DNA from: an uncultured Gammaproteobacteria bacterium
GTDB lineage: Bacteria; Patescibacteriota; Microgenomatia; JALYQM01
NCBI GenBank assembly: GCA_964403585.1
Contig: CAYOFQ010000001.1
Coordinates: forward strand, 648,630 to 712,629
DNA: 64,000 bases
Direction of reading: 5' to 3'
Of the stretch, positions 6,340 through 27,894 are shown one piece after another. How positions within the stretch are numbered: position 1 is the first letter of the stretch; every line of letters starts with the position of its first letter. A model generated the notes under the pieces. That model was not told where the DNA came from and did not search any database. It worked only from the letters and a program-made list of their open reading frames with translations. The position numbers were made by a program, and so were the translations under genes.

Positions 6340-6488
6340 CTGCAATAAGCATTCCCACTGCAGAAAATTCATTTTTCGAACAAACTTTTATCCTTTTATT
6401 TTTCCCCGCAAAAATCATACAATAATCATAAGTTCCATTAAAATTATTCAAGCGTAGAGCTGGATTTAGTTTAAAGGAAGCCATAAAT

Positions 6489-10647: not shown

Positions 10648-10917
10648 ATGCTGGCAGTCGGAAATATCCTCATTCTTATCGGATTCATTAAGCTCATCTC
10701 CGGAGAGTATTCCGCACTATTCTGTGCAACGTTTTACGCGATCATCACATTTATATTCCGGTTGATGGTGGGTATTGAATTTGCCGATGCCTTCACGGCT
10801 GCGCTGATCTATTTTGTTACCTCATTGCTCTATTTTTTCTTACTTAAAAAAACACAACACTATCCGCTATTTTGGTGGATAATACTGGTAGGCGGACTCT
10901 TGATCGGTCTTATATAA
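10648..10917 (+). CDS. Small hydrophobic membrane protein (hypothetical)
   Basis: 89 aa with 2-3 predicted TM helices. Lies between rplS and rnhB on the same strand. No recognisable motif. Confidence 0.5.
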   Translation: MLAVGNILILIGFIKLISGEYSALFCATFYAIITFIFRLMVGIEFADAFTAALIYFVTSLLYFFLLKKTQHYPLFWWIILVGGLLIGLI

Positions 10918-10924
10918 TAGAATC

Positions 10925-11578
10925 ATGATTACTGCCCACTCTCAATTTGAACAAACCTACTGGACCCAGGGGAAGAAATATATCGCCGGCGTCGACGAAG
11001 TTGGCCGCGGGTGCTGGGCTGGTCCGGCAATAGTAGGCGCAGTTATCTTTCCGGCCGATGTTCCGCTGAATTTTGAACTAGCCGATTCCAAACTTCTGAC
11101 TAAAAAAAAGCGGGAAGAATTAGTTGCCCAAATCCAGAATGCGGCGGTATCGTATGCCATATCCGAAGTACCGCTCGAATATATTAACTCGGTTGGCGTG
11201 GGAAAAGCTATCCAACACGGATTTAAAACCACGGTTCAATCTCTGTCCACGGTACCTGATTTTATTTTGATCGATGCGTTTAAAATAAAAGAATATCCGG
11301 CCGAGAAGCAACTCAATATTATTAAAGGCGATCAACAATCAATCTCGATTGCCGCCGCGTCTATCATTGCCAAAGTTTTTCGGGATAACCTGATGTCCCA
11401 ATTGCATAAACTTGAGCCGCGTTTTGGATTTAACCAGAATAAAGGCTACGGTACCAAATCACACCGTACTGCAATTGCGCAGTTCGGACTATCTATGTAT
11501 CACCGGACAAGTTACAATTTAGAAAAATGGCTACCCAAGAAACCCGTCAACACCACAACCGGCACCTCGGACAAATAG
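10925..11578 (+). CDS. rnhB: Ribonuclease HII
   Basis: RNase HII N-terminal motif AGVDEVGRGCWAGPAIVGAVIF together with the conserved D/E catalytic context. Confidence 0.9.
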   Translation: MITAHSQFEQTYWTQGKKYIAGVDEVGRGCWAGPAIVGAVIFPADVPLNFELADSKLLTKKKREELVAQIQNAAVSYAISEVPLEYINSVGVGKAIQHGFKTTVQSLSTVPDFILIDAFKIKEYPAEKQLNIIKGDQQSISIAAASIIAKVFRDNLMSQLHKLEPRFGFNQNKGYGTKSHRTAIAQFGLSMYHRTSYNLEKWLPKKPVNTTTGTSDK

Positions 11579-11883
11579 GCGAAGAAATTGCCGCAAAATT
11601 TCTCATTCAAAACGGCTACTCGATCGTTGACCGGAATTGGCGAACTCGTTATGGCGAGATTGATATTATTGCGCAAAAAGATCGCACCATCTGCTTTATC
11701 GAAGTAAAAACGAGAAGCAATATTGGCTACGGTTATCCTGTCGAGGCAATTACACCAAGGAAACTCCATAAAATGAACGTTACTGCGCAGCTCTATTGTC
11801 TTAAACACAGGATCAATCTTCCCTGCAAACTGATTGTCATTGAAGTGATTAAGAACAGCTGTCACTTGATCGAAATTGAGTAA
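11527..11883 (+). CDS. yraN: YraN family (UPF0102) putative endonuclease
   Basis: GEEIAAKFLIQNGYSIVDRNWRTRYGEIDIIAQK...FIEVKTRS matches UPF0102. Overlaps the rnhB 3' end by about 50 nt, so the start is uncertain. Confidence 0.8.
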   Translation: MATQETRQHHNRHLGQIGEEIAAKFLIQNGYSIVDRNWRTRYGEIDIIAQKDRTICFIEVKTRSNIGYGYPVEAITPRKLHKMNVTAQLYCLKHRINLPCKLIVIEVIKNSCHLIEIE

Positions 11884-11901
11884 CCTCTCATAATATACCC
11901 C

Positions 11902-13134
11902 ATGAGCGAACCAAGCCTCGGCGCCCCCCGGGTAGAATCACCATTCATTGATTCAAAAGATCTCGATAAAGGCTTACCTGAAATTCCGTATTTATTTGAT
12001 AGCGTCGGTGCCATAATCACCGACCGCAATTCAATTTCGGAAATTGTCGCAACACCGGACGAGCAGGTACCTCCGGCGGTTAAAGAATTCGTCCTGGCAC
12101 ATAGCACTCACTATCCCGACAATACATCCCTTATTTCACTCCGAAATAGTGAATATTTTGCGTTAACAACGCAAATGGATACGCATGATCGTAAAATCGA
12201 TGTAAAAACAGTGTTCGAAGAATTAAATACCATTACTGACCTGTGTACTCAAATGCAGGAGATCGTTACTGTGGATCAGGAAACCACTGCCGAGCAGAAG
12301 CTGGCGCTGTTGTGCTTACTGGATTACGGAAAGGGGATTTCGCTTAAGATTCTGGACAATGAATTTACTGCCGCACGGACGAAGGTCGGCCCCGATTATC
12401 AACCGGCTCTAGAGCTGGCCCAAAATTATGTTGACGCGTACTATACGTTCTTACTTCAAGGGAGCACTGTCGAAATTTTACACCTAAAAAGTAATCTTGC
12501 GGCCGTAGATGCGGCACAACTGCACAATCCTAACGATAAAAACCGTACCGGGTATGCCGATTGGGTTCGGGAAATGGATAATCCTTTGCTAATAGTTTTT
12601 CAAATAAACCGGATCTGCAATGAGCTGCAAAACGGCGTACCGTGCGACGTGATACTAACCCCGTTTCAGGGGGCTTCGGAGATCGGGTTAGCCCTTAAAT
12701 CAAGAATAAAGATGCTGGGAAACTTACCCGTTCCGGAAGTTATCCCGATTAAATATGGCGGAAAGCAGGCGCGAGCAGGCACCGCCCCCGATAAACTCTT
12801 TGCTCACGGCTTCAATCCTGACCGGCAGATACGTGGTAAACACGTGTGGATTGTGGACGATAATATTGTGACCGGCAATACGCAAGTCAGACTAAGTCAA
12901 CATATCGAGTCGCAATACGCTCCTGCTGAGATGAGAGCTTCGGTGGTGCAAGTGTCTGACGGGGAGATTAAGGAGGATTTGGAACCGCAGCTCAAGAAAC
13001 TTCTCGCCACACGCGCTGTCTCGGCAACGTTTGCCGCGTACGCTGTGCCTGAAGATGATATCGAACTCTATCGGTTTAGCCTGCCGCTTGAGCCACACCA
13101 GTTCGCTCTACAAGAGCGTGAACTCGGCAGATGA
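11902..13134 (+). CDS. Hypothetical protein with C-terminal type I phosphoribosyltransferase (PRTase) domain
   Basis: The C-terminal 170 aa or so show the PRTase fold signature (DVILTPFQGASEIGLALKSR...GKHVWIVDDNIVTGNTQV, PRPP-binding loop). The N-terminal 230 aa or so have no recognisable motif. TAATAT lies 5 nt upstream of the ATG. Confidence 0.65.
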   Translation: MSEPSLGAPRVESPFIDSKDLDKGLPEIPYLFDSVGAIITDRNSISEIVATPDEQVPPAVKEFVLAHSTHYPDNTSLISLRNSEYFALTTQMDTHDRKIDVKTVFEELNTITDLCTQMQEIVTVDQETTAEQKLALLCLLDYGKGISLKILDNEFTAARTKVGPDYQPALELAQNYVDAYYTFLLQGSTVEILHLKSNLAAVDAAQLHNPNDKNRTGYADWVREMDNPLLIVFQINRICNELQNGVPCDVILTPFQGASEIGLALKSRIKMLGNLPVPEVIPIKYGGKQARAGTAPDKLFAHGFNPDRQIRGKHVWIVDDNIVTGNTQVRLSQHIESQYAPAEMRASVVQVSDGEIKEDLEPQLKKLLATRAVSATFAAYAVPEDDIELYRFSLPLEPHQFALQERELGR

Positions 13135-13217
13135 GAGAATATTCACTTCTGATATAGTAGGACAGTATTGCATACTATAGGACAAAGTAGTATGATACCC
13201 GCTATTGTTCTTACACT

Positions 13218-13844
13218 ATGGTCGAACATGAATACTACCAGTCTTATCGGCATACCGAGTCGCTTGGAGGGAATGCAGCCCTGCGGGAGTATTGCCGGCA
13301 CGAAAATGTCAGTCCGTATGAAGTCAGTAACGGAAACACACGCTCGCTTCGCGAGATAGTGAGCGACGCAGGGTTACGCGTGGCAGTTCACGCCGAACTG
13401 CTTCCGGCTCGGGCCTGGTATGCAACCAGAGACTTTTTTCGGGCCCATGTAGACAAAGACGGCCGTATCATGGCAAAATTCCCCTGGACTAATAAAGAAA
13501 TAACAACCGAAGCAGGGCAACTCACGCACTTCTTGGCCGAAGAAACCGCCCCCATACCCGAATCAGTAATTAATAATATGCTTACTATTGCGAAGAGAAG
13601 CAGTGATTTGCAATCTCAAATCTTAGTCGGACAAATAGAACAAAACCAGCAATTATTCAAAGCAAATATTGAAGGATTCATACAAAAGTATCCGAATTTG
13701 GCGCTCCTTAATATGGGGATTACGTCTTTGCTCGTAATTTCCGGGATGCATCCCGAGTATTTACCCGCACTGGCTCCACTTGGGCTAGGTATTGCCCAAG
13801 CTACGGTAGTCGAACGCAGCCGCATATGTTGCACAGCGCTTTAG
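13218..13844 (+). CDS. Hypothetical protein
   Basis: 208-aa ORF between the PRTase-fusion gene and the ABC-like gene. No motif recognised. Coding assignment rests on ORF length and position only. Confidence 0.45.
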   Translation: MVEHEYYQSYRHTESLGGNAALREYCRHENVSPYEVSNGNTRSLREIVSDAGLRVAVHAELLPARAWYATRDFFRAHVDKDGRIMAKFPWTNKEITTEAGQLTHFLAEETAPIPESVINNMLTIAKRSSDLQSQILVGQIEQNQQLFKANIEGFIQKYPNLALLNMGITSLLVISGMHPEYLPALAPLGLGIAQATVVERSRICCTAL

Positions 13845-13944
13845 TGATCTGTACTCATATAACAGCGACGGGCAGAATGTCCATGAAGATGTAGTCAAAG
13901 CCGGTGAGCAGTTATTTCAGATATACAACGGATTATTGACTGAA

Positions 13945-16230
13945 ATGGAAGACGCCGGATTAACACCAGGCGCGTTACTTGGGTCGGCTGGTACTGCCGC
14001 TTTAGGGGACCGCGGTTTATCTGCCGTACTCATTATTGGTGGCTGGCTAGTCTCAAAAAGAATGGTCAAAAAGTCCCAAAGCGGTAGTAAAGAATTCACC
14101 GAGTGGTTTGTTAATGCCCGCAACGGGGTGATTACTAAGATGGAAGCCGCTATCGCCGATCCGGCAGTGTCACAACAAAAACTGGATGAAATCTATGAAG
14201 ACTCCCGGTCAATGGCAGCGTATATTCGTGGGCATAACGCCATGTCCTCAACCTTTGAACAAGCGTTTCCCTGGATGGTTCAGTCTGCCGCTGCGGCGTT
14301 GTCTTTTATTACCGGCATCTCACAAAATATTTCCCAGTATATTATTGCCGGACGGGTTGGTGCTGCCGAGCAAAAGAAAATGCTGCGATCAGTGAGTTTT
14401 AACCAATCACTCATGACCATAGAACGATACCATGACCGGTTACGCAAAACCTTTGAATCAATACAAACCTTTCAACAGGCATTGTGCCAGATCGAGCCCG
14501 GAGTGTGTGCCGATACCCTTGATCAGGCACTTACTCATAATGTTGAGCTGGAGGAGGCAAGTGGTAGCATCACGGTCCACCGCTTTGTTGATGCCAAAGG
14601 CGTGATGCACGAAATCGGCGATATTCCGTTTATCAAAGGCGAAGTTCACCACATTGTCGGTGAATCGGGTTCCGGAAAATCGGCGTTACTGAACTATCTG
14701 CGAATATTCTACGGCTCACATGATATCCCATTCTCCTTTGCGGCAATTGAATCTTCCGTCAAAGATCAGAGCCTTGGTTTCAGGTTAGCCAAACAACTTT
14801 GTCAGGGAAAAAATAAGCGCATGGCTCGGTACATTGAGGAACAGTTGAACGCAACAGGATTGGTGAGTACCGAAGTTCCCATCAGTCAAATCTGGGAAGA
14901 CTGGAAAGCGTATCATGCGCCGAACAGTAAACGCACCGAATCAAGAACAAACAAATTCATCGACGGAGTTGTCCTGGAGTACACTTTATTCCGCATGAAT
15001 ATTCAGAGTGACCATATTCTTGAAGAAAGTGGATCAACGGGAGAAAACCTGCGTGCACAATTAATGCTCCTGGATTTGGATGCCGATGTCATCGTTCTTG
15101 ATGAAATAATATCCAATGTCGACCCGTACAACCTGCAAAAAATGATCGAATATCTTGTCGGCGAATTAGGTGAAGATATCCACCATAAAACAGTGATCAG
15201 CGTAACGCATAAACCGGAGGTTCTCAGACTCTTTCATCAGTTAATGCCCGAGGGCACAAACCAAAATATAACCGTAATTTATCCGGATGTCAGTTTTACC
15301 GAACCGTTAAGCAACCGATTTGTTGAAGTAAACCTTGATAATGACCCGAACCAGATCGAGGCACATATTGTTGACCAAACCATCAACCGGTTTAAAGCAA
15401 TTTTTTCCAAACCGATCGCGCCAAAAGACGTACACTCGGAACTATACGATTTTTGGGAAGAATTTTCGTTGCCGTTTGAATTACCTTTGGAAGGGAAATT
15501 AAAAGTAATTGCTGCGCTAACCCAATATCGTGACTATTGGGCAGGTGTACCGTTAACGGAAATTGAACGCTACTACCTTGGCGGGCTCATTGATGTAATG
15601 ATTTACCGATTATGCCCCGATTATAACTGGCAGGAACGTCAGACCGACCCATTTTGGCGACAGGCCACCTATTTAAAGTATCAAATGTTCGCCTCGATTC
15701 CCCAAGTATATCTTGAATTTAACAAAGGAAGTTTTGAATATCATTACCTGGACGATAACGAAAGAACAACTGTGCCGAAGGACCCGATTCCACCGTTTCT
15801 GGATGCGCCCCATTCGGTTGCGGTCGAACCGGGTGCGGCTGAAACCTTGGCCGTGATCAAAACGTTAACTGCAATGGTCAGACGGATTGATTACATATTG
15901 CCTGAGGATATGTTTAAACATATCCAGGATTTTGTGTATGAAATTGACCAGCACCCGTTTATTGCTCCGTTTGGCGTACAACTCCTTTCTATTGTGCACG
16001 AATTTCAAGACATCCTGTTCGAAAACCGACTACGCCATAACGACTGTGTTGAGTATGCGGTCATTATGTTAAAACTGGCCGAGTGGGCCGGAGCTGATCG
16101 GGCGATTGTGAACCAGATCAATGCCAGTCGGGATAGTGTGCTATCGCACTTTGGTGAACTTGATAAAATAAATTTTGAGCACATCGACGTTGAATGGTAT
16201 CTCAGGAACAGTAGACAGCTTGTTGCCTAG
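13945..16230 (+). CDS. ABC-type ATPase (NBD) domain protein with large N- and C-terminal extensions (hypothetical)
   Basis: Central ABC nucleotide-binding domain: Walker A GESGSGKS, degenerate signature ESGSTGENLRAQLMLL, Walker B ADVIVLDEIISNVD, H-loop VISVTHK. This is preceded by about 230 aa with one or two hydrophobic helices and followed by about 320 aa with no recognisable domain. The track start at 13936 is TTG; the ATG is at 13945. Confidence 0.7.
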   Translation: MEDAGLTPGALLGSAGTAALGDRGLSAVLIIGGWLVSKRMVKKSQSGSKEFTEWFVNARNGVITKMEAAIADPAVSQQKLDEIYEDSRSMAAYIRGHNAMSSTFEQAFPWMVQSAAAALSFITGISQNISQYIIAGRVGAAEQKKMLRSVSFNQSLMTIERYHDRLRKTFESIQTFQQALCQIEPGVCADTLDQALTHNVELEEASGSITVHRFVDAKGVMHEIGDIPFIKGEVHHIVGESGSGKSALLNYLRIFYGSHDIPFSFAAIESSVKDQSLGFRLAKQLCQGKNKRMARYIEEQLNATGLVSTEVPISQIWEDWKAYHAPNSKRTESRTNKFIDGVVLEYTLFRMNIQSDHILEESGSTGENLRAQLMLLDLDADVIVLDEIISNVDPYNLQKMIEYLVGELGEDIHHKTVISVTHKPEVLRLFHQLMPEGTNQNITVIYPDVSFTEPLSNRFVEVNLDNDPNQIEAHIVDQTINRFKAIFSKPIAPKDVHSELYDFWEEFSLPFELPLEGKLKVIAALTQYRDYWAGVPLTEIERYYLGGLIDVMIYRLCPDYNWQERQTDPFWRQATYLKYQMFASIPQVYLEFNKGSFEYHYLDDNERTTVPKDPIPPFLDAPHSVAVEPGAAETLAVIKTLTAMVRRIDYILPEDMFKHIQDFVYEIDQHPFIAPFGVQLLSIVHEFQDILFENRLRHNDCVEYAVIMLKLAEWAGADRAIVNQINASRDSVLSHFGELDKINFEHIDVEWYLRNSRQLVA

Positions 16231-16289
16231 CTATTCCCAATTACCTCAAATAAGGGTATAATCATCTGTACGGATAAAAAGATCTCTAT

Positions 16290-20284: not shown

Positions 20285-22798
20285 TCACTCATTGCTACCT
20301 ATTAACTGGAGTTCTTTCCACACCAGCTGGTGAGATTCTTTACCTGCCGGATTAATTGAAATTTGCTGCGTTAATTCTCTCCAGCGGGAGTGCATCTCCA
20401 GTGGATGCGCGTACTGTTCGGCATTGGCATCAGTCATCTCTTCCGTGTAATGTATAGTTCTGCGACCCGTCGATTCAATGAGAATATTTTGCTTCTCAAA
20501 CATGCGATATGTGTTTTGAAAATTAATTACCGGCTCAGTCAGATACGCATACTCTTTAATCAAATCCCACAACACATCATTCACCGCTTCGGAAGTTTCC
20601 ACTACCGGCAGTCCTAAATTTTTTGCTTCAAAGTATACAATCGGATAATCGCTCGAAGGATAACTTTGAGTCAGTGTTTGAACAATCTGTGCTATTTGAG
20701 CATCGGTTCCAGGTGTTTTTCTCAGCTTTAAAAGATTGGTACAAATCCGTTGAACTAATGACAACTGTCGGTTTGCAGCTGCAGTAACTAACGGATGGAA
20801 TGTTTCAGGATCCTGGTTTACCACAGCAGTTGAGGCTTCTTTTTGTCTTGCCGTTGATTTAGACGGCAGCGGGTTTGATGCCTGGAAAATTTCGTTGAGC
20901 GGCACCGCTACTGATTCCTGGTCAAACGATTTGCTGAGCAATTTATGCGAGAACCAGGTGTCAACAGGTGAAAGAAATCCGAACGGATTCATAAGTATCG
21001 AATCACCCGATAACGCCATCATTGTTGTCGCAACCGAAGATTCTTCAGGTAAAATTACCGTCAACTCGTCACAAAACTCGCGAACCAATGTCGCCATTCT
21101 CCAGATAACAGTGCTGTCCGCATCCTGAATAATTGGCAACAAGTAGAGCGATTTCTTTTTTCCTAACTTTCGCAAGTGGCTATAGAGATAGCGCATATCC
21201 TCCATGGATACATAGGTATTGGCCGCATAATACACGAGAACTTTTCCGTGCAGAGATTCTTCCAGGCGTTCAATCGATTCCTGTGTTCGCTCCCAGGCAA
21301 CCGGAGGTTTGCGCGGCGGAAGTGACCCGCTTTGATTTTGAGTCTTTGCTTGTGGACGTTCGGCACGTTGTTCAGGGGCTGGGAGGCGCTGCTCGCGTTC
21401 TTGCTGACGTTGGTCCCGGTCCGGCTGGCGTTGCTCCCGTTCAGGTCGTTGTTCACGCTCCGGCGGACGCTGTTCGCGGTCTGCTCGTTGTTCACGATCT
21501 GCCTGCCGAGGCGGACGTTCTGATTGAGGCATCTCTTTTGGTGCTTCCGGTGTCGTAATATCATTCTCAAAGCGGGGCTCTTCCTGCCGTGCTCGTGGCG
21601 GTTCAGTCTGTATTTTTGGCGCGGGGGGTGCCACCGTTTTTTGTTCAGCACGAGGCATCTGTTCACGCTGTTTAGGCTGCTCAGGTTGCCGTGCAGGTTG
21701 TTGTTGCGACTGCTGCTTTGGTGCTGGCTGTTCCGCCAGCTGGGGAGCTGCTTGAGCCTTCGACTCTTTTTTGGGAGCTGCTGCTACCGGCGGTGCTGGT
21801 GGTTTCGACTGCTGCTGTTGTTGTTTTGGTTGTTGAGGTACCTGCTCAGGCGGCCGCTGCTGCTGTTGCTGAGGGGCTTTTGGCTGTTGCGTCTGCTGCT
21901 TCGGCTGCGGGGGTTGCTGGGGCTGTCGTGCCGGTGCGGGTTGGGGAACCGGTGGCATTTGCTGTGCAGGTTGATTTTGATTAAACGCAGCTTGAAGCGG
22001 CGGAATTGCCGGAGGGCGGCCCGGTGCCTGACCAGGCTGCATCTGTGCATTAAGTGGCGGCAATGACGGTACGCGCTGCGGTTCAGTAGCCTGCGGCATG
22101 GATGGCATCGTTAATGGCGGTAGTACGGGTGATTTATCGGCGACAGTACCGGAAGGGTCATCAAACTGTAAACCGCTGCTCTTCAGCAGATCGTCCAGAC
22201 TCGGTAACTCAAAGGGCACATTTTGCGGATTGGCCTGCTGTCCCTGGTTACTGAAAGGAAGCGGCGGAATCTGACTCTGCTGCGGTACCGGGTTTTCAAC
22301 AGGGGGACGTCCAGGTGGTTGGTTAGGCATAGGCGCTTGACGCTGCGGAGCTGCAGGCTGAGGTGCCGGCATTGGGGCCGGTGCCTCCGGAGCCGGTGCA
22401 GTTCCGTTTGTATAACTTTCCCAGGCTAAATCAGTGATTCTTTTGTAAATCAGGTCAAAGGGCGCTTTTCGCATCTCTCCTTTAAGCCGCTGATAGCTGG
22501 TCATCGTTACCGTATTGTTGCCCATCGCGTCAACGATACTCAAGGTAACATCGGGCACATTGGGAGACGATCCTGAATCATGAACAATATTCGGCAGCTG
22601 AAAAAAACCGACTTCCCTGGCATATTGCAGGACTTCGATAACTTTCTGTCGCTCAATCTGCCGTTCGACGATATCTGTATCAGACTCAAAAATGAGCATT
22701 CGCCCATTGTCGTAAATTTCAACATCCCCGGCACGGGAGTTTGGCGGCAACATACCACCACTCATTTTTACTAGAATAGCTAGATTTGAAACAGGCAT
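20285..22798 (-). CDS. Large (837 aa) protein: N-terminal globular region, very long P/Q/A-rich disordered segment with REQR/DREQR repeats, and a C-terminal ClpP/SDH-like (serine peptidase fold) domain
   Basis: Long, clean ORF. Low-complexity PQ-rich core (…PQPAPARQPQQPPQPKQQTQQPKAPQQQQQRPP…) and tandem DREQRADREQRPPEREQRPEREQRQPDRDQRQQEREQR. C-terminal region KVLVYYAANTYV…LPEESSVATTMMALSGDSILMNPFGFLSPVD resembles the SDH/ClpP-class serine peptidase fold. Confidence 0.7.
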   Translation of the reverse strand: MPVSNLAILVKMSGGMLPPNSRAGDVEIYDNGRMLIFESDTDIVERQIERQKVIEVLQYAREVGFFQLPNIVHDSGSSPNVPDVTLSIVDAMGNNTVTMTSYQRLKGEMRKAPFDLIYKRITDLAWESYTNGTAPAPEAPAPMPAPQPAAPQRQAPMPNQPPGRPPVENPVPQQSQIPPLPFSNQGQQANPQNVPFELPSLDDLLKSSGLQFDDPSGTVADKSPVLPPLTMPSMPQATEPQRVPSLPPLNAQMQPGQAPGRPPAIPPLQAAFNQNQPAQQMPPVPQPAPARQPQQPPQPKQQTQQPKAPQQQQQRPPEQVPQQPKQQQQQSKPPAPPVAAAPKKESKAQAAPQLAEQPAPKQQSQQQPARQPEQPKQREQMPRAEQKTVAPPAPKIQTEPPRARQEEPRFENDITTPEAPKEMPQSERPPRQADREQRADREQRPPEREQRPEREQRQPDRDQRQQEREQRLPAPEQRAERPQAKTQNQSGSLPPRKPPVAWERTQESIERLEESLHGKVLVYYAANTYVSMEDMRYLYSHLRKLGKKKSLYLLPIIQDADSTVIWRMATLVREFCDELTVILPEESSVATTMMALSGDSILMNPFGFLSPVDTWFSHKLLSKSFDQESVAVPLNEIFQASNPLPSKSTARQKEASTAVVNQDPETFHPLVTAAANRQLSLVQRICTNLLKLRKTPGTDAQIAQIVQTLTQSYPSSDYPIVYFEAKNLGLPVVETSEAVNDVLWDLIKEYAYLTEPVINFQNTYRMFEKQNILIESTGRRTIHYTEEMTDANAEQYAHPLEMHSRWRELTQQISINPAGKESHQLVWKELQLIGSNE

Positions 22799-25044: not shown

Positions 25045-25100
25045 CCATTTACAGTCAATGGCATGTGCTCCTATAATAACTATACTTGGAGAGAGTAATC

Positions 25101-26762
25101 ATGTCTGAACTGCCCACAATCAAAGTAACGTATATCGTTGATACGCTTTTACCTGAAAAATGTCACGATCTCATTGCCATCCATGCTCTTTATGGCGAAG
25201 TTGATGATCAGGATGTCGGTTCATTTGCCGAAAGTCTGATCCTGAACCGCTGGACAAAAGAAGTTGTATCACGCGAAAAATATTCTCAATCCTCCCAGGT
25301 CATTACGCTTAATGAGCATAAGTATTCGGTACCTGTGTCACGATTTAGCCAGAGCCAAACCTTATTTCCTGAAAAAATACTTTCGGAAATACTTTCCGAG
25401 ACGGAAAAGATTCGTATGCATGACCCGCTCACTAAACAGGTGCTACTTATCGTTACGGGAGATAATGTCTTGCATAATGTTTCTATCCGGAAACAGAGCC
25501 ATCTGCCGATTATTCATTTTACTCGCAATACTAACCAGCCACAAAAAATTATCACCGTTCACCCCAACCATTCCGGGATAGCACACGGATTTTTCCATAA
25601 GATTTCGACAAAATCAGAACTTTCCCGGGTAAAGAGGGATACAATCATCGCAGCACCATATCGGATTCTCAAAGAGTACCGGGGCAAATGCAACGGGATA
25701 CTCATTCTAAAAGATCAAACACATTCGGGACCTTATACGATGCACTTCTCGGGCCCGCATCTGGTCGTGGAATCCGCAGATCTTAAAGACATTCCCGAAC
25801 GTACCTATATTTCGCTCAACTCATCCCGGGGTGAGATAGCCATTATTGGCAAAAACGCCCAACTGCGTTCGACTCAGCTGACAGTAACGCAGAAACGCTT
25901 AATCAGAAAAGTTGAAACGGAACAGGTAAAATTCTTCCGGGATCTTTCCGCCGGATCAAAAGGCGAGACACCTACCGTGTACGGGTATAGTTTACTTAAT
26001 CCCACCGAATTGGTCAGATCCGTGCTTGAGCGTCATCGGTCCGGAAGTTTTACGCAAGCACTGATCGATTATATAATGGGGGATTTAAGGCTAACCCCTC
26101 GTAAGCCGTTAGTATACCAGTCACTTTGTGTCAGTTTGGGAACCAAAAATGTATTTGGCAAACACGGTGGGCAGTATTTGCGGGAAAGTCCGGACTTCTT
26201 CCTTGAAGAGTTGGAAGCCCTGCACCAATTATTGTATGTCTATAATTTCTCCGATATAACCCTTACTATTCCGTTTGTAAGAACGGTAAAGGAGCTCGAA
26301 GATATTAAGAAAATAATTGCCAGGCATAAGCTGACGCGTTCGCATAAATTCAAGTTGTTTATTACTGTGCAGGTACCCGCGAACATTCTGCAGTTGAACG
26401 AATATCTCGATGCCGGTTTGGATGGCGTTATTATTGATCTGCAGTGTCTTACCGATCTTACCCTGGGAATTGATTCACATCTATTCAGGAAAGAGTACCG
26501 ACAGGCGGCCCACACATACGAGTTTATGGATGAGACATTTCGCGCTATGCGCAGTGGAGGTGTCTGGGAGATCGATGCGGAGCTGTTTAGACAAGTAAAA
26601 CTCGATGCTGCCATCAATCGAATTTTGGAACATACACGGGAAATCTGCCGCCGTCGTAAGACACCTGTTTATTTATATTTACCGGATACCTATGAAGAAG
26701 AAGTGGAGCAGGAGCTCCGTAAGCAAACTTTGCCTCATTCAGTAATTCCCGCTTATGCCTAA
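25101..26762 (+). CDS. PEP-utilizing enzyme family protein (Enzyme I / PEP synthase-like phosphohistidine + TIM-barrel domains), highly divergent
   Basis: The C-terminal roughly 300 aa align to the PEP-utilizing TIM-barrel (ITLTIPFVRTVKELEDIKKII...LFITVQVPANILQLNEYLDAGLDGVIIDLQCLTDLTLGIDSH; compare MIEVP...FFSIGTNDLTQ). The central segment DQTHSGPYTMHFSGPHLVVES...GEIAI resembles the mobile phosphohistidine domain (GGRTSHAAI...P.VVG...G.V). Several canonical catalytic positions appear substituted. ATG at 25101 has a GGAGAG SD; the track start at 25086 is TTG. Confidence 0.65.
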   Translation: MSELPTIKVTYIVDTLLPEKCHDLIAIHALYGEVDDQDVGSFAESLILNRWTKEVVSREKYSQSSQVITLNEHKYSVPVSRFSQSQTLFPEKILSEILSETEKIRMHDPLTKQVLLIVTGDNVLHNVSIRKQSHLPIIHFTRNTNQPQKIITVHPNHSGIAHGFFHKISTKSELSRVKRDTIIAAPYRILKEYRGKCNGILILKDQTHSGPYTMHFSGPHLVVESADLKDIPERTYISLNSSRGEIAIIGKNAQLRSTQLTVTQKRLIRKVETEQVKFFRDLSAGSKGETPTVYGYSLLNPTELVRSVLERHRSGSFTQALIDYIMGDLRLTPRKPLVYQSLCVSLGTKNVFGKHGGQYLRESPDFFLEELEALHQLLYVYNFSDITLTIPFVRTVKELEDIKKIIARHKLTRSHKFKLFITVQVPANILQLNEYLDAGLDGVIIDLQCLTDLTLGIDSHLFRKEYRQAAHTYEFMDETFRAMRSGGVWEIDAELFRQVKLDAAINRILEHTREICRRRKTPVYLYLPDTYEEEVEQELRKQTLPHSVIPAYA

Positions 26763-27894
26763 AATCGAAAAACTTACTGCTATAAAGATTTCGCACGACA
26801 ATACGTCTCTCCTTGGGATTCAGCTGAAGCTGGATAATGGTTTGGTAGTCCAGTCAAATTTTCCGGTGCAGGGTAATGACCCTACACATGATGTTACTAA
26901 GGCTATGACGGTTATCAATGACATAGTCGCGCAAATCGTCGAAGGACTTAATCCGCTGCGCCAAAAAGAACTTGATAAAATGATCACCGAATTAAGTGCA
27001 ATTCACGAACAGTCGGCACTACGGGCAAATATATCACTTGCTCTCTCTCTCACTATATTAAAAGCCGCCGCCGCACTTAATAATCTTGATCCGGTTACCT
27101 ATATACGTACAATATATGGTTTCGATCAAGGTAGAGAGCATCGGCCGATCCTGGTTTTTACGTGTATCAAAAATGAAGGAGGCACGGGAGCTTTTAAAGA
27201 GTTTTTCGTGATCCCTGCACGCAGTAAATCAACTTCGGAGTCATTGCTGATGTTCCGGGGTGTTGCTGCTGCATTAAAATCCGATACTCCGCTGATCACC
27301 ACTCACCATGAAATCATGAATACGGTGCAAATCGAATTATTGGAAAAACAGATACTCTGTCTGGGATTTTCATTGCACCATGATGTGTATCTCGGATTCA
27401 AGCCGGATCTCATCTATGACGAACAAAGAGGGTACCGTTGTACTGATATGCTGCAGGATGTCAGTGCCAACCAGATGGTTGAATATTACAAGGAACTCCA
27501 GACGTTATATTCACCATTAATTCAAGAAAATCTGTTTGCCTCTCATGACCTTATTTCGCTCGTAACACTCCATAAAGAGATTGGTGATCAAACAATACTC
27601 ACCGTGAGTTCCGAACGTGTCACCACGCCGGTTGAGTGCCGCAGGTATGCTGCTGCGCTGCCCACAGCGATGCTGAATTTAACGCATCAATCAGTTCCTT
27701 CGGTAACACAGTATATCGAGCTAATCGATGCCGCTAAAAAAGCTGATTGGAAGGTAATGATCGATACGAATGGCTGCAGTGATTATGGATTGTTATTCGC
27801 CCTCTCAGCTGCCGCTCAGGTGGACTTTATAAAAATGGATAGGTGTGACTTAGAAATAGAAAAGGAACTCTCATATGTTGGACAAAGCGATTAA
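26755..27894 (+). CDS. Enolase-family protein, divergent (probable pseudo-enolase lacking most catalytic residues)
   Basis: Clear enolase-specific similarity in the N-terminal and central regions (VTKAMTVINDIVAQIVEG...ANISLALSLTILKAAAALNNLDPVTYIRTIYG vs enolase VTKAVAAVNGPIAQALIG...GANAILAVSLANAKAAAA...PLYEHIAELNG, and ILVFTCIKNEGGTGAFKEFFVIPARSKSTSESLLMFRGVAAALK vs [30 protein letters not shown]...EVFHHLAKVLK). It is only 379 aa, the SGASTG loop is deleted, and the catalytic Glu/Lys/Asp positions appear replaced when compared by eye. Confidence 0.7.
   Translation: MPKIEKLTAIKISHDNTSLLGIQLKLDNGLVVQSNFPVQGNDPTHDVTKAMTVINDIVAQIVEGLNPLRQKELDKMITELSAIHEQSALRANISLALSLTILKAAAALNNLDPVTYIRTIYGFDQGREHRPILVFTCIKNEGGTGAFKEFFVIPARSKSTSESLLMFRGVAAALKSDTPLITTHHEIMNTVQIELLEKQILCLGFSLHHDVYLGFKPDLIYDEQRGYRCTDMLQDVSANQMVEYYKELQTLYSPLIQENLFASHDLISLVTLHKEIGDQTILTVSSERVTTPVECRRYAAALPTAMLNLTHQSVPSVTQYIELIDAAKKADWKVMIDTNGCSDYGLLFALSAAAQVDFIKMDRCDLEIEKELSYVGQSD

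Follow-up and report, generated by a model that had tools for sequence, protein, structure and literature searches.

The PRTase-fold protein considered here has its closest described counterparts among the 6-oxopurine PRTases (HPRT/HGXPRT), their non-catalytic relatives PyrR and PRTFDC1, and certain PRTase-domain defence proteins. ShosT, of the ShosTA defence/TA system, has a Rossmann-type pyrophosphatase as its N-terminal domain and an APRT-like PRTase domain, and shows no activity on common purines (PMC11961720). For the ABC ATPase encoded beside it, the counterparts are transporter proteins, either fused half-transporters (bacteriocin exporters, CydC/CydD) or stand-alone nucleotide-binding domains (NBDs; FtsE, LolD, EcfA, SufC), and defence ATPases of the ABC/OLD type (mad3 of MADS, AbiLi, AriA of PARIS, GajA of Gabija and PtuA of Septu). 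Both proteins are encoded in a single interval, between yraN and typA, of the window, the whole stretch of 64,000 nucleotides that was analysed. A sequence-only reading had taken this interval as a three-gene unit. Here, we describe evidence that it very probably holds two unrelated accessory genes, a clade-specific PRTase-fold gene (g1) and a rare ABC-ATPase gene (g2 + g3) split by a 1-nt frameshift.

The yraN-typA interval

Three ORFs of 410, 208 and 764 aa lie on the same strand between yraN and typA, exactly as had been read from the sequence:

11866..11894, + strand: promoter-like element of g1 (TTGATC-17-CATAAT), still within yraN, at its 3′ end
11902..13134, + strand: g1, 410 aa, an N-terminal part and a C-terminal type I PRTase fold (ORF, homologues, AF2, Foldseek)
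13218..13844, + strand: g2, 208 aa, N-terminal fragment of the split ABC-ATPase gene, with a conserved N-terminal domain and two weakly hydrophobic helices
13936..16230, + strand: g3, 764 aa (761 aa if the start is the ATG at 13945), C-terminal fragment of the split gene
16234..16262, + strand: promoter-like element of typA (TTCCCA-17-TATAAT, within AATAAGGGTATAAT), conserved ahead of typA in all relatives

The left flank is a UPF0102/YraN gene. On the right, the typA product is 88–92% identical to the GTP_EFTU...BipA_C proteins of relatives, and the typA promoter-like element forms the boundary of the variable site. The order is yraN-g1-g2-g3-typA here and yraN-g1-typA, with neither g2 nor g3, in two relatives (L001 and L002/L003), and in a third (L008) typA directly follows yraN after a gap of 76 nt, leaving the slot empty. 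In this clade of uncultivated bacteria with small genomes, the interval is a variable slot, and the suspicion of accessory status was borne out when its occupancy was compared across sister genomes. This comparison comprises four star-like, approximately equidistant genomes (DnaE identity 87–90%) with no outgroup, in which gain and loss of g1 and of g2/g3 are unpolarised. As one relative lacks it, g1 would be dispensable. The composition of the island is native-like; codon usage in each of the three ORFs resembles that of the host and clearly favours the annotated frame. Neither repeats nor an integrase were found at the island edges, and searches with the island genes yielded no phage relatives.

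The frameshift between g2 and g3

Although g2 and g3 had been described as separate genes, they stem from a single ancestral ORF of about 1003 codons, of which g2 holds the first 208 and g3 the last 764. Two further features mark their junction:

13810..13841, + strand: frameshift interval, one base longer than in an intact gene; from 13810 on, the g3 frame is free of stops
13810..13935, + strand: segment that was once coding but is intergenic in the annotation; its 42 codons in the g3 frame contain no stop and can be aligned to the relatives

An exhaustive phmmer/HMMER search with g3 found only four relatives (P0014–P0017), which are distant, 887–1198 aa long and all uninterrupted. Their first ~200 residues match g2 and the remainder matches g3. 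P0014 is aligned to g3 from its residue 249 on (phmmer E 2e-28) and is also matched by g2 (blastp 1e-7), while g2 53–194 is collinear with P0015 50–197 (phmmer E 6.5e-10 at the size of the library). A family HMM of the four relatives gives g2 67.7 bits. The g2 frame stops at 13842–13844, whereas that of g3 extends upstream without a stop to 13810, overlapping the end of g2; the "intergenic" codons 13810–13935 align at columns ~260–310 of the relatives. Against the family HMM, g3 scores 170.6 bits as annotated and 182.4 bits when extended upstream to 13810, and the restored 1003-aa ORF is matched as a single domain (residues 11–694, 246.5 bits). Any single base removed within 13809–13842 leaves a stop-free ORF of 1003 codons, and the HMM scores of the candidate junctions differ by less than 2 bits. 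A 1-nt insertion within 13810–13841 would have cut an ancestral gene of ~1003 codons in two. As g3 keeps an open frame of 764 codons and all ATPase motifs, the frameshift must be either very recent or tolerated. Most likely, the gene has been recently inactivated here, or is at best expressed as two pieces.

It is possible, if rather unlikely, that the split is functional, in that a gene fission has left two subunits which reassemble or that a programmed +1 frameshift at CTT TAG T produces the protein of 1003 aa. The programmed frameshift at prfB, CUU UGA C, is a parallel for such an event at the g2 stop. A +1 slip on CTT 13839–13841 leads exactly into the g3 frame, the break lies in a loop that separates hydrophobic helices 2 and 3, and the frameshift is constant across three sequencing runs; g3 also keeps its long open frame and its full set of catalytic motifs. 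However, no Shine-Dalgarno-like stimulator lies upstream of CTT TAG, TAG is an ordinary stop here (18/47), and the HMM slightly prefers an earlier junction at 13808–13814, where the frame-1 peptide NAAAYVAQ resembles ANAYDAM and TKAYDPM of the relatives. Moreover, all four relatives are uninterrupted, and there are no orthologues with an equivalent split that would indicate its maintenance.

Since g2 and g3 derive from one ORF, the architecture becomes a ~470-aa N-terminal region, the NBD and a ~320-aa C-terminal region. This takes the place of the earlier description of g3 as a separate 764-aa protein with a 230-aa N-terminal extension. The ABC NBD itself had been recognized correctly (Walker A/B, H-loop and a degenerate signature), and all motifs are present:

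14584..15243, + strand: ABC NBD of g3 (~aa 216–436), from motif and profile matches
14659..14682, + strand: Walker A, GESGSGKS (aa 242–249)
15028..15048, + strand: degenerate signature, SGSTGEN (aa 365–371)
15085..15105, + strand: Walker B, DVIVLDE (aa 384–390)
15112..15123, + strand: D-loop, SNVD (motif)
15199..15213, + strand: H-loop, SVTHK (motif)

One or two hydrophobic helices had been noted ahead of the NBD of g3, and only one marginal hydrophobic segment is found there; aa 1–215 of g3 comprise two weakly hydrophobic helices and long helices. The KD19 of the hydrophobic helices of g2/g3 is only 1.1–1.6, which makes membrane insertion uncertain. The C-terminal region of ~320 aa is helical and has a conserved motif, LTEIERYYL. 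The structure model of g3 is not confident (pLDDT 42).

The NBD resembles transporter NBDs (ABCC4, OpuA, FtsE, LolD, EcfA; E down to 7e-12), which are its best matches in both PDB and NCBIfam, and it is nearer to these than to the AAA_21 or SMC types. It shares Walker A, the S-x-G-E/Q signature, Walker B with the catalytic Glu, the D-loop and the H-loop with both fused half-transporters and stand-alone NBDs, and, as in exporters, a hydrophobic/helical region precedes it. Unlike exporters, the family has no detectable ABC_membrane domain, and g2 + g3 has only four weakly hydrophobic segments. It also differs from the known transporter ABC ATPases in a novel ~150-aa domain in front, a novel ~320-aa domain behind, and a distance of ~115 residues from Walker A to the signature motif in g3; its genes are solitary, without a permease or substrate-binding partner, and its scores lie under all curated cut-offs. 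With the defence ATPases listed above, g3 has an ABC-type ATPase core in common, and the mad3 model matches all but one of the five family members (best E 9e-13). However, the similarity of g3 is confined to the signature/Walker B half (mad3 profile 265–329 of 374), and the partner genes of MADS, AbiLi, PARIS, Gabija and Septu are absent here, as are Toprim, HNH and nuclease domains.

The intact product would represent a very rare family of stand-alone ABC-type ATPases, probably ordered as a conserved N-terminal domain, four weakly hydrophobic and long helices, the NBD and the helical C-terminal domain of ~320 aa. Its NBD would be of transporter type with complete Walker A, Walker B, D-loop and H-loop and an S-x-G-E signature. 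Judging from fold and motifs, the intact protein may be an ATP-driven dimer in which the NBD sandwich moves a membrane-associated helical N-terminal region.

The PRTase-fold protein

The −10 hexamer of the g1 promoter-like element ends 7 nt upstream of the ATG, a leaderless-type spacing that is frequent in the window. In an AF2 model (pTM 0.75), g1 has a small N-terminal alpha/beta part and a helical bundle (~aa 30–200), then the PRTase fold (~aa 225–350), followed by a poorly modelled tail. The fold matches human HGPRT and PyrR with a Foldseek probability of 1.0, and no specific structural match was found for the ~220-aa N-terminal region with its helical bundle. The PRTase fold and PRPP loop noticed in the sequence proved correct:

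12844..12882, + strand: PRPP-binding loop VWIVDDNIVTGNT of g1 (aa 315–327), nearly invariant among g1 homologues

The best sequence matches, over g1 231–352, are trypanosomal HGPRT (E 1e-3) and PRTFDC1. The PRPP loop is canonical, as in HPRT/HGXPRT. However, the position of HPRT Asp137 is occupied by Val or Leu in the g1 family (Val323 in g1) and that of Lys165 by Ser, g1 scores far under the cut-offs of HPRT/PRTase families, and, unlike HPRT, PyrR and PRTFDC1, it carries an extra conserved N-terminal region of ~220 aa. Thus, g1 would belong to the HPRT/PyrR branch of the type I fold and retain an intact PRPP/5-phosphoribosyl-binding loop, with substitutions at the catalytic Asp of HPRT and at the 6-oxo-specifying Lys. 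This fold and these motifs suggest that it binds PRPP or a 5′-phosphoribosyl nucleotide, and that it may be either a salvage-type PRTase of non-canonical base specificity or a nucleotide-sensing protein.

Only two homologues of g1 are known (three members in all; 60% and 47% identity), both at the equivalent yraN-g1-typA position of related genomes in which g2/g3 is missing. The divergence of g1 (46–58%) approximates that of yraN (52–62%), in agreement with the expectation for vertical descent; g1 would be a clade-specific gene inherited together with the flanking operon. Like ShosT and the PRTase-like effectors of type III-A3 retrons, g1 has two domains, the C-terminal one a PRTase that binds PRPP or, in g1, is predicted to, and is an accessory gene. 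Unlike these, it has no adjoining DprA-like ShosA, reverse transcriptase or retron ncRNA, it sits in a conserved operon position, diverging like its neighbours, and it has no PADLOC match at E ≤ 1.

Two neighbours in one slot

That g1, g2 and g3 form a novel three-component defence- or toxin-like nucleotide-targeting system, with a PRTase effector and an ABC ATPase, is very unlikely. The common strand and short gaps, the differing occupancy of the site, the existence of PRTase-domain defence toxins such as ShosT (PMC11961720) and the retron III-A3 effectors, the position of P0016 between TA modules, and the weak resemblance that PADLOC reports between the NBD and mad3, AbiLi and AriA would all fit such a system. 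However, g1 occurs without g2/g3 in two relatives, and P0014–P0017 are solitary in four unrelated contexts with no common neighbour and no PRTase next to them in any. This non-co-occurrence largely refutes the one-system reading and, as g2/g3 is moreover one broken gene, the claimed three-gene unit is not supported. The vertical-like divergence of g1, the frameshift in g2/g3 and the absence of phage or mobile-element signatures also argue against it. A PADLOC run gave no backing to defence membership, with no match of g2, as of g1, even at E ≤ 1 and only generic similarity of g3 in the Walker B/signature half of its NBD. Chance insertion would have brought the PRTase and the ABC ATPase side by side. 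A partnership between them has no supporting evidence, although their adjacency in one genome does not in itself disprove a functional link. The statement that neither protein belongs to a named family stands, as do the domain calls of PRTase fold and ABC NBD; Pfam, NCBIfam, PADLOC and PHROGs yield only generic superfamily matches for the island genes. Two families remain, both very rare and uncharacterised.

A sequencing or assembly error in a genome that encodes the intact 1003-aa protein is hardly credible. One base change does restore the ORF, and g3 is otherwise intact, but three independent Logan assemblies, built from different runs (SRR16481186, SRR16481187 and SRR8893623), agree with the window at 100% identity across the junction, and the longest homopolymer in 13810–13841 is 3 or less.

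Least probable of all is a housekeeping pair of a ComF/GntX-like competence PRTase and a standard ABC exporter, for which a weak NCBIfam GntX match confined to the PRPP loop (E 0.037) and the nearness of the NBD to those of transporters such as bacteriocin exporters and CydC/CydD could be cited, but the GntX match reaches 13.5 bits where the cut-off is 304, the ~220-aa N-terminal domain of g1 has a helical bundle and no zinc finger, ABC_membrane (PF00664) matches none of the five g2/g3 family members, the best exporter-model stretches are all confined to the NBD, and the genes are missing from sister genomes. As the occupancy of the yraN-typA interval varies, the conserved ComF and standard ABC exporter that the sequence-only reading had named as its refutation do not apply.

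The yraN-typA interval in four genomes

The interval between yraN and typA, referred to here as the slot, holds three ORFs in the window, all on one strand and at exactly the coordinates assigned to them when the DNA was read from sequence alone:

11902-13134, + strand: g1, an ORF of 410 aa
13218-13844, + strand: g2, an ORF of 208 aa
13936-16230, + strand: g3, an ORF of 764 aa

Upstream of g1 lie dnaE, rplS, a membrane ORF of 89 aa, rnhB and the UPF0102/YraN gene, and downstream of g3 lies typA, the product of which is 88-92% identical to proteins of relatives with GTP_EFTU...BipA_C. A codon model trained on the other genes of the window favors the annotated frame for g1, g2 and g3, with scores (0.08-0.16) inside the range of those other genes (0.05-0.25), and GC and GC3 of the three ORFs are host-like. 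Searches of Pfam, NCBIfam, PADLOC and PHROGs gave only sub-threshold matches at the superfamily level, with no credible match in any of them for g2. In the ORF list, yraN and the 3′ end of rnhB share 52 nt (window 11527-11578); the true start of yraN in the window may lie further downstream, because the yraN products of relatives are 111-112 aa long.

The slot has been compared in four related genomes that are roughly equidistant from one another (identities of 87-90% for DnaE, 81-87% for GatB, 63-71% for RnhB and 52-62% for YraN), that of the window and those containing the loci L001, L002/L003 and L008.

Gene order of the slot in the four genomes
Window: yraN-g1-g2-g3-typA
L001 (GCA_030855825.1): yraN-g1-typA
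L002/L003: yraN-g1-typA, typA starting 41 nt past g1
L008 (GCA_964535655.1): yraN-typA, with a 76-nt gap

Occupancy thus takes three states among four genomes, the presence/absence pattern of a variable accessory slot, as the sequence-only reading had suspected. Upstream of typA, each of the four genomes has a promoter-like AATAAGGGTATAAT, which bounds the slot. The divergence of g1 is about equal to that of yraN, and the sequences are consistent with vertical descent of g1 and one loss; gain is the alternative in this comparison, which has no outgroup and in which the pairwise identities of the four markers form a star-like pattern providing no root for gain versus loss. Two of the relatives are NCBI MAGs, and no homologue of g2 or g3 was found in either of them, the proteins of both being included in the searched collection.

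The slot shows none of the usual signatures of mobility (integrase, repeats, tRNA target, atypical composition): there is no integrase gene among the window ORFs, flanking direct or inverted repeats are short matches at chance level, and GC and codon usage reveal no compositional anomaly in the slot. A promoter scan found 7 sites as against 10.0 expected in shuffled sequences, and none of 11 terminator-like sites is located at the end of g1 or g3.

g2, g3 and the ABC family

Word-indexed homology searches with g2 and g3 returned only the queries themselves, which first suggested that both are ORFans. This was overturned by an exhaustive HMMER scan with g3 of 1.84 billion representatives, which recovered four long relatives, P0014 (983 aa; E 2e-28), P0015 (887 aa), P0016 (1007 aa) and P0017 (1198 aa). 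There were no homologues of g3 in JGI metagenomes and no matches in a scan of IMG/VR. The part matching g3 begins about 250-370 residues into each relative. Residues 53-194 of g2 are collinear with residues 50-197 of P0015 (phmmer; E 6.5e-10 at the size of the whole library), and g2 also matches the N-terminus of P0014 (blastp, 1e-7). The g3 frame is open back to 13810, the g2 frame is closed by TAG at 13842-13844, and any one-base deletion between 13809 and 13842 produces a stop-free ORF of 1003 aa. Against an HMM of the four relatives, this repaired protein is matched as one domain (residues 11-694) with 246.5 bits, compared with 67.7 bits for g2 alone and 170.6 bits for g3 alone. The addition of the 42 "intergenic" codons to g3 contributes about 12 bits, and the possible positions of the frameshift junction score within less than 2 bits of one another. 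Judged from these comparisons, g2 and g3 are one frameshifted gene, which is probably decaying in this genome.

Could the split itself be functional, either as a fission into two subunits or by a +1 slip at CTT TAG T? The heptamer at the g2 stop (window 13839-13845) is like the prfB +1 heptamer CUU UGA C, and ribosomes slipping by +1 at it would continue in the g3 frame, but the SD-like stimulator of the prfB type is absent upstream of the g2 stop, and TAG is frequent as a stop in the window (18/47), so that a functional split is possible but rather doubtful. An assembly error is extremely unlikely, as Logan assemblies of three separate runs reproduce the junction with 100% identity to the window; the frameshift is therefore in the DNA itself. 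We thus return to a single frameshifted gene: with collinear relatives, a repairable ORF and a frameshift shared among assemblies, g2 is not a separate hypothetical protein, as had been supposed, but the N-terminal piece of this gene, and the supposed 230-aa N-terminal extension of g3 forms with it one N-terminal region of about 470 aa. What had looked like a hypothetical protein and an ABC protein with odd extensions can be corrected as an annotation artefact.

The ABC nucleotide-binding domain (NBD) recognized earlier in g3 is confirmed by its motifs and by the matches of a family profile to transporter NBDs. Walker A (GESGSGKS), a degenerate signature (SGSTGEN), Walker B (DVIVLDE), the D-loop (SNVD) and the H-loop (SVTHK) are arranged in this order, Walker B including the catalytic Glu, which places g2+g3 in the ABC ATPase superfamily. 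Pfam ABC_tran, with its cut-off at 25 bits, gives only 21.8 for g3 but 28.3 for P0017, and g3 scores far under the cut-offs of many NCBIfam models of transporter NBDs. When the five proteins are searched as one profile, solved structures are matched through the NBD only, and the best of these are transporter NBDs (ABCC4, OpuA, Rv1281c, FtsE, LolD and EcfA; E down to 7e-12).

In g3 itself, the stretches matching CydC and NHLM_micro_ABC2 reach back past Walker A into the helices preceding the NBD, which prompted the idea that the N-terminus is what is left of an exporter TMD. That idea found no confirmation: ABC_membrane (PF00664) was detected in none of the five members at E<=5, hhalign with an exporter aligned the NBD alone, and the best stretches of the relatives to CydD, FtsE and LolD models are inside the NBD. 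A half-transporter of the type IV exporter class, in which ABC_membrane with six TM helices would precede the NBD, was rejected for g2+g3 on these results and on hydropathy. Only four segments keep their positions across the family, and they are weakly hydrophobic (KD19 1.1-1.6); g2 ends with two of them and g3 begins with the other two, the frameshift falling between helices 2 and 3. A single-sequence AF2 model of low confidence (pLDDT 42) shows helices in the C-terminal region of g3, about 320 aa long, which shares the motif LT..(E/Q)RYYL with the relatives. The ABC protein would act as an ATP-driven dimer, the NBDs of which may move the membrane-associated helical N-terminal region.

The likeness of g2+g3 to the ATPases of MADS, AbiL, PARIS, Gabija and Septu is partial and confined to the NBD: PADLOC matches of mad3, AbiLi and AriA to g3 cover only the half with the signature and Walker B (for mad3, profile positions 265-329 of 374). 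Since partner genes of these systems are also absent from the window and from the loci of relatives, a known defense ABC/OLD ATPase was rejected. Each of the four relatives is a solitary gene, in surroundings unrelated to those of the others.

Genomic contexts of the four relatives
P0014: preceded by a Colicin_V/CAP gene and followed by lon
P0015: adjoining a response regulator and trxB/trx
P0016 (L014/L015): between PIN-MazE and BrnT-CopG toxin-antitoxin pairs
P0017 (L017 1145-11712): inside a suf/isc cluster, with sufC-sufB-sufD on one side and an rnhB...iscS-nifU stretch on the other

The differing contexts of P0016 and P0017 may or may not bear on the function of the ABC family.

The PRTase-fold protein g1

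The assignment of g1 to the type I phosphoribosyltransferase (PRTase) fold has stood, on the evidence of both its PRPP loop and its fold, and the loop was found as described, like the ABC motifs of g3. The loop VWIVDDNIVTGNT (aa 315-327) consists of four hydrophobic, two acidic and two hydrophobic residues followed by T-G-x-T, and W316, I317, D319, D320, N321, I322, T324, G325 and T327 are invariant in 3/3 homologues including g1. Pfam PRTase_2 and Pribosyltran match at E about 1e-3, below their gathering scores (18.5 vs 28.8 bits and 16.8 vs 26.3 bits, respectively). An AF2 model from three sequences (pTM 0.75) comprises a small alpha/beta part, a long-helix bundle (aa about 100-200) and a PRTase core (aa 228-346) of Rossmann-like fold. 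Foldseek ranks human HGPRT and PyrR at the top for this model (prob 1.0), and PDB profile searches matched residues 231-352 to trypanosomal HGPRT (E 1e-3) and PRTFDC1. Only two homologues exist among 5.8 billion proteins, P0004 (60% identical; annotated by NCBI as "phosphoribosyltransferase") and P0005 (47% identical); none was found in IMG/VR or JGI metagenomes, and a scan of GTDB species genomes for more loci added only L007, on the same contig as L001.

In human HPRT, the catalytic Asp is D137 in the PRPP loop and the Lys reading the 6-oxo group is K165. In alignments to Trypanosoma brucei HGPRT and PRTFDC1, the Asp position is occupied by Val323 in g1 and by Leu in P0005, and the Lys position by Ser in g1. 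With both residues replaced, g1 was rejected as a canonical 6-oxopurine PRTase (HPRT/HGXPRT), although its PRPP loop is fully conserved. A ComF/GntX competence PRTase was rejected because the NCBIfam GntX model gives 13.5 bits against a cut-off of 304, through the PRPP loop only, and the N-terminal region contains a helical bundle in the model instead of a zinc finger. ShosT of ShosTA, the domain make-up of which was used for comparison (PMC11961720), was discarded on 0 PADLOC matches at E<=1 and on the lack of a DprA-like neighbor, the neighbors of g1 being yraN on one side and g2 or typA on the other. Nor is g1 a type III-A3 retron effector: it has no adjacent reverse-transcriptase ORF, no PADLOC match and no msr/msd ncRNA nearby, Rfam matches in the window being tRNAs only. 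g1 would bind PRPP or a 5-phosphoribosyl ligand, and might serve either as a salvage PRTase of a non-canonical kind or as a sensor of nucleotides.

Relation of the two genes, and other features of the region

On the best-supported reading, the slot is variable and contains two accessory genes that are independent of each other. g1 and the ABC family do not co-occur elsewhere, and there is no PRTase gene near any of the four ABC relatives (0/4 contexts). The three-gene island of PRTase, hypothetical and ABC proteins proposed in the sequence-only reading is thus replaced by a chance juxtaposition plus one frameshifted gene. The PRTase-ABC combination that it could not name dissolves with it. g1 and the ABC protein belong to known superfamilies and to no described family. 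From sequence searches, the families appear tiny (3 known members for g1, 5 for the ABC protein), with extra domains outside known assignments. What is left is two extremely rare families among billions of sequences, from poorly known small-genome bacteria. The ABC family, with its two unassigned domains, would be a reasonable target for structure prediction, and the slot offers a small, clean illustration of how a reduced genome gains genes, loses them and lets them decay.

A bolder proposal, which we consider unlikely, is that g2+g3 and its four relatives make up a family not described before, of large, membrane-associated ABC ATPases that are encoded by solitary genes, carry new domains at both termini and are confined to uncultivated bacteria with small genomes, and that g1 represents a new PRTase-fusion family. 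Either could then be a single-gene conflict or stress module lodged in the slot (a sensor/effector driven by ATP, for instance, or a toxin that depletes PRPP or nucleotides), the g2/g3 split perhaps being a functional version in two pieces or under frameshift regulation. That g1, g2 and g3 form a true three-gene defense or toxin system is very unlikely; the defense link suspected earlier gained nothing from PADLOC, in which g1 has no match at E<=1 and g3 only partial NBD matches, and the locus should not be counted as a PRTase-ABC system in surveys of defense islands. Least probable of all is ComF with a standard ABC exporter, in view of the GntX score and the lack of ABC_membrane in the five members.

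Several other features of the region were noted. The gap between gatB and dnaE contains a gene of 483-536 aa without a Pfam match in 3/3 relatives (L001 3016-4596, L002 3014-4465, L008 3072-4682) and is only 150 nt long in the window (6340-6488); it is therefore a second variable slot of the same syntenic block. The 89-aa ORF between rplS and rnhB (window 10648-10917) has 3-4 strongly hydrophobic segments; L002/L003 carry it with 52% identity, and neither L001 nor L008 has it. L008, the relative without g1, has resolvase/recombinase genes together with an HTH gene cluster at about 6-11 kb downstream of typA (20920-21842), which suggests a mobile element near the same region.

Many window genes lack a Shine-Dalgarno sequence and have a TATAAT-like hexamer the last base of which is only about 6-12 nt from the start codon (e.g., starts at 1989, 10925, 11902, 25086, 43866, 46090, 52761 and 61940), which suggests that mRNAs without a leader, or with a very short one, occur commonly in this genome. 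In an ORF of 837 aa on the - strand (window 20285-22798), the core, about 300 aa long, is of low complexity and rich in P/Q, with local GC up to 0.58 and AT skew down to -0.55, and its C-terminal part weakly matches an SDH-type ClpP-like protease. At 25086-27894, ORFs resembling a PEP-utilizing enzyme and enolase have weak Pfam matches (Enolase_N 38.5 bits, Enolase_C 26.3 bits) and several neighboring ORFs have none, so that the proteome, as judged from these matches, is strongly divergent.
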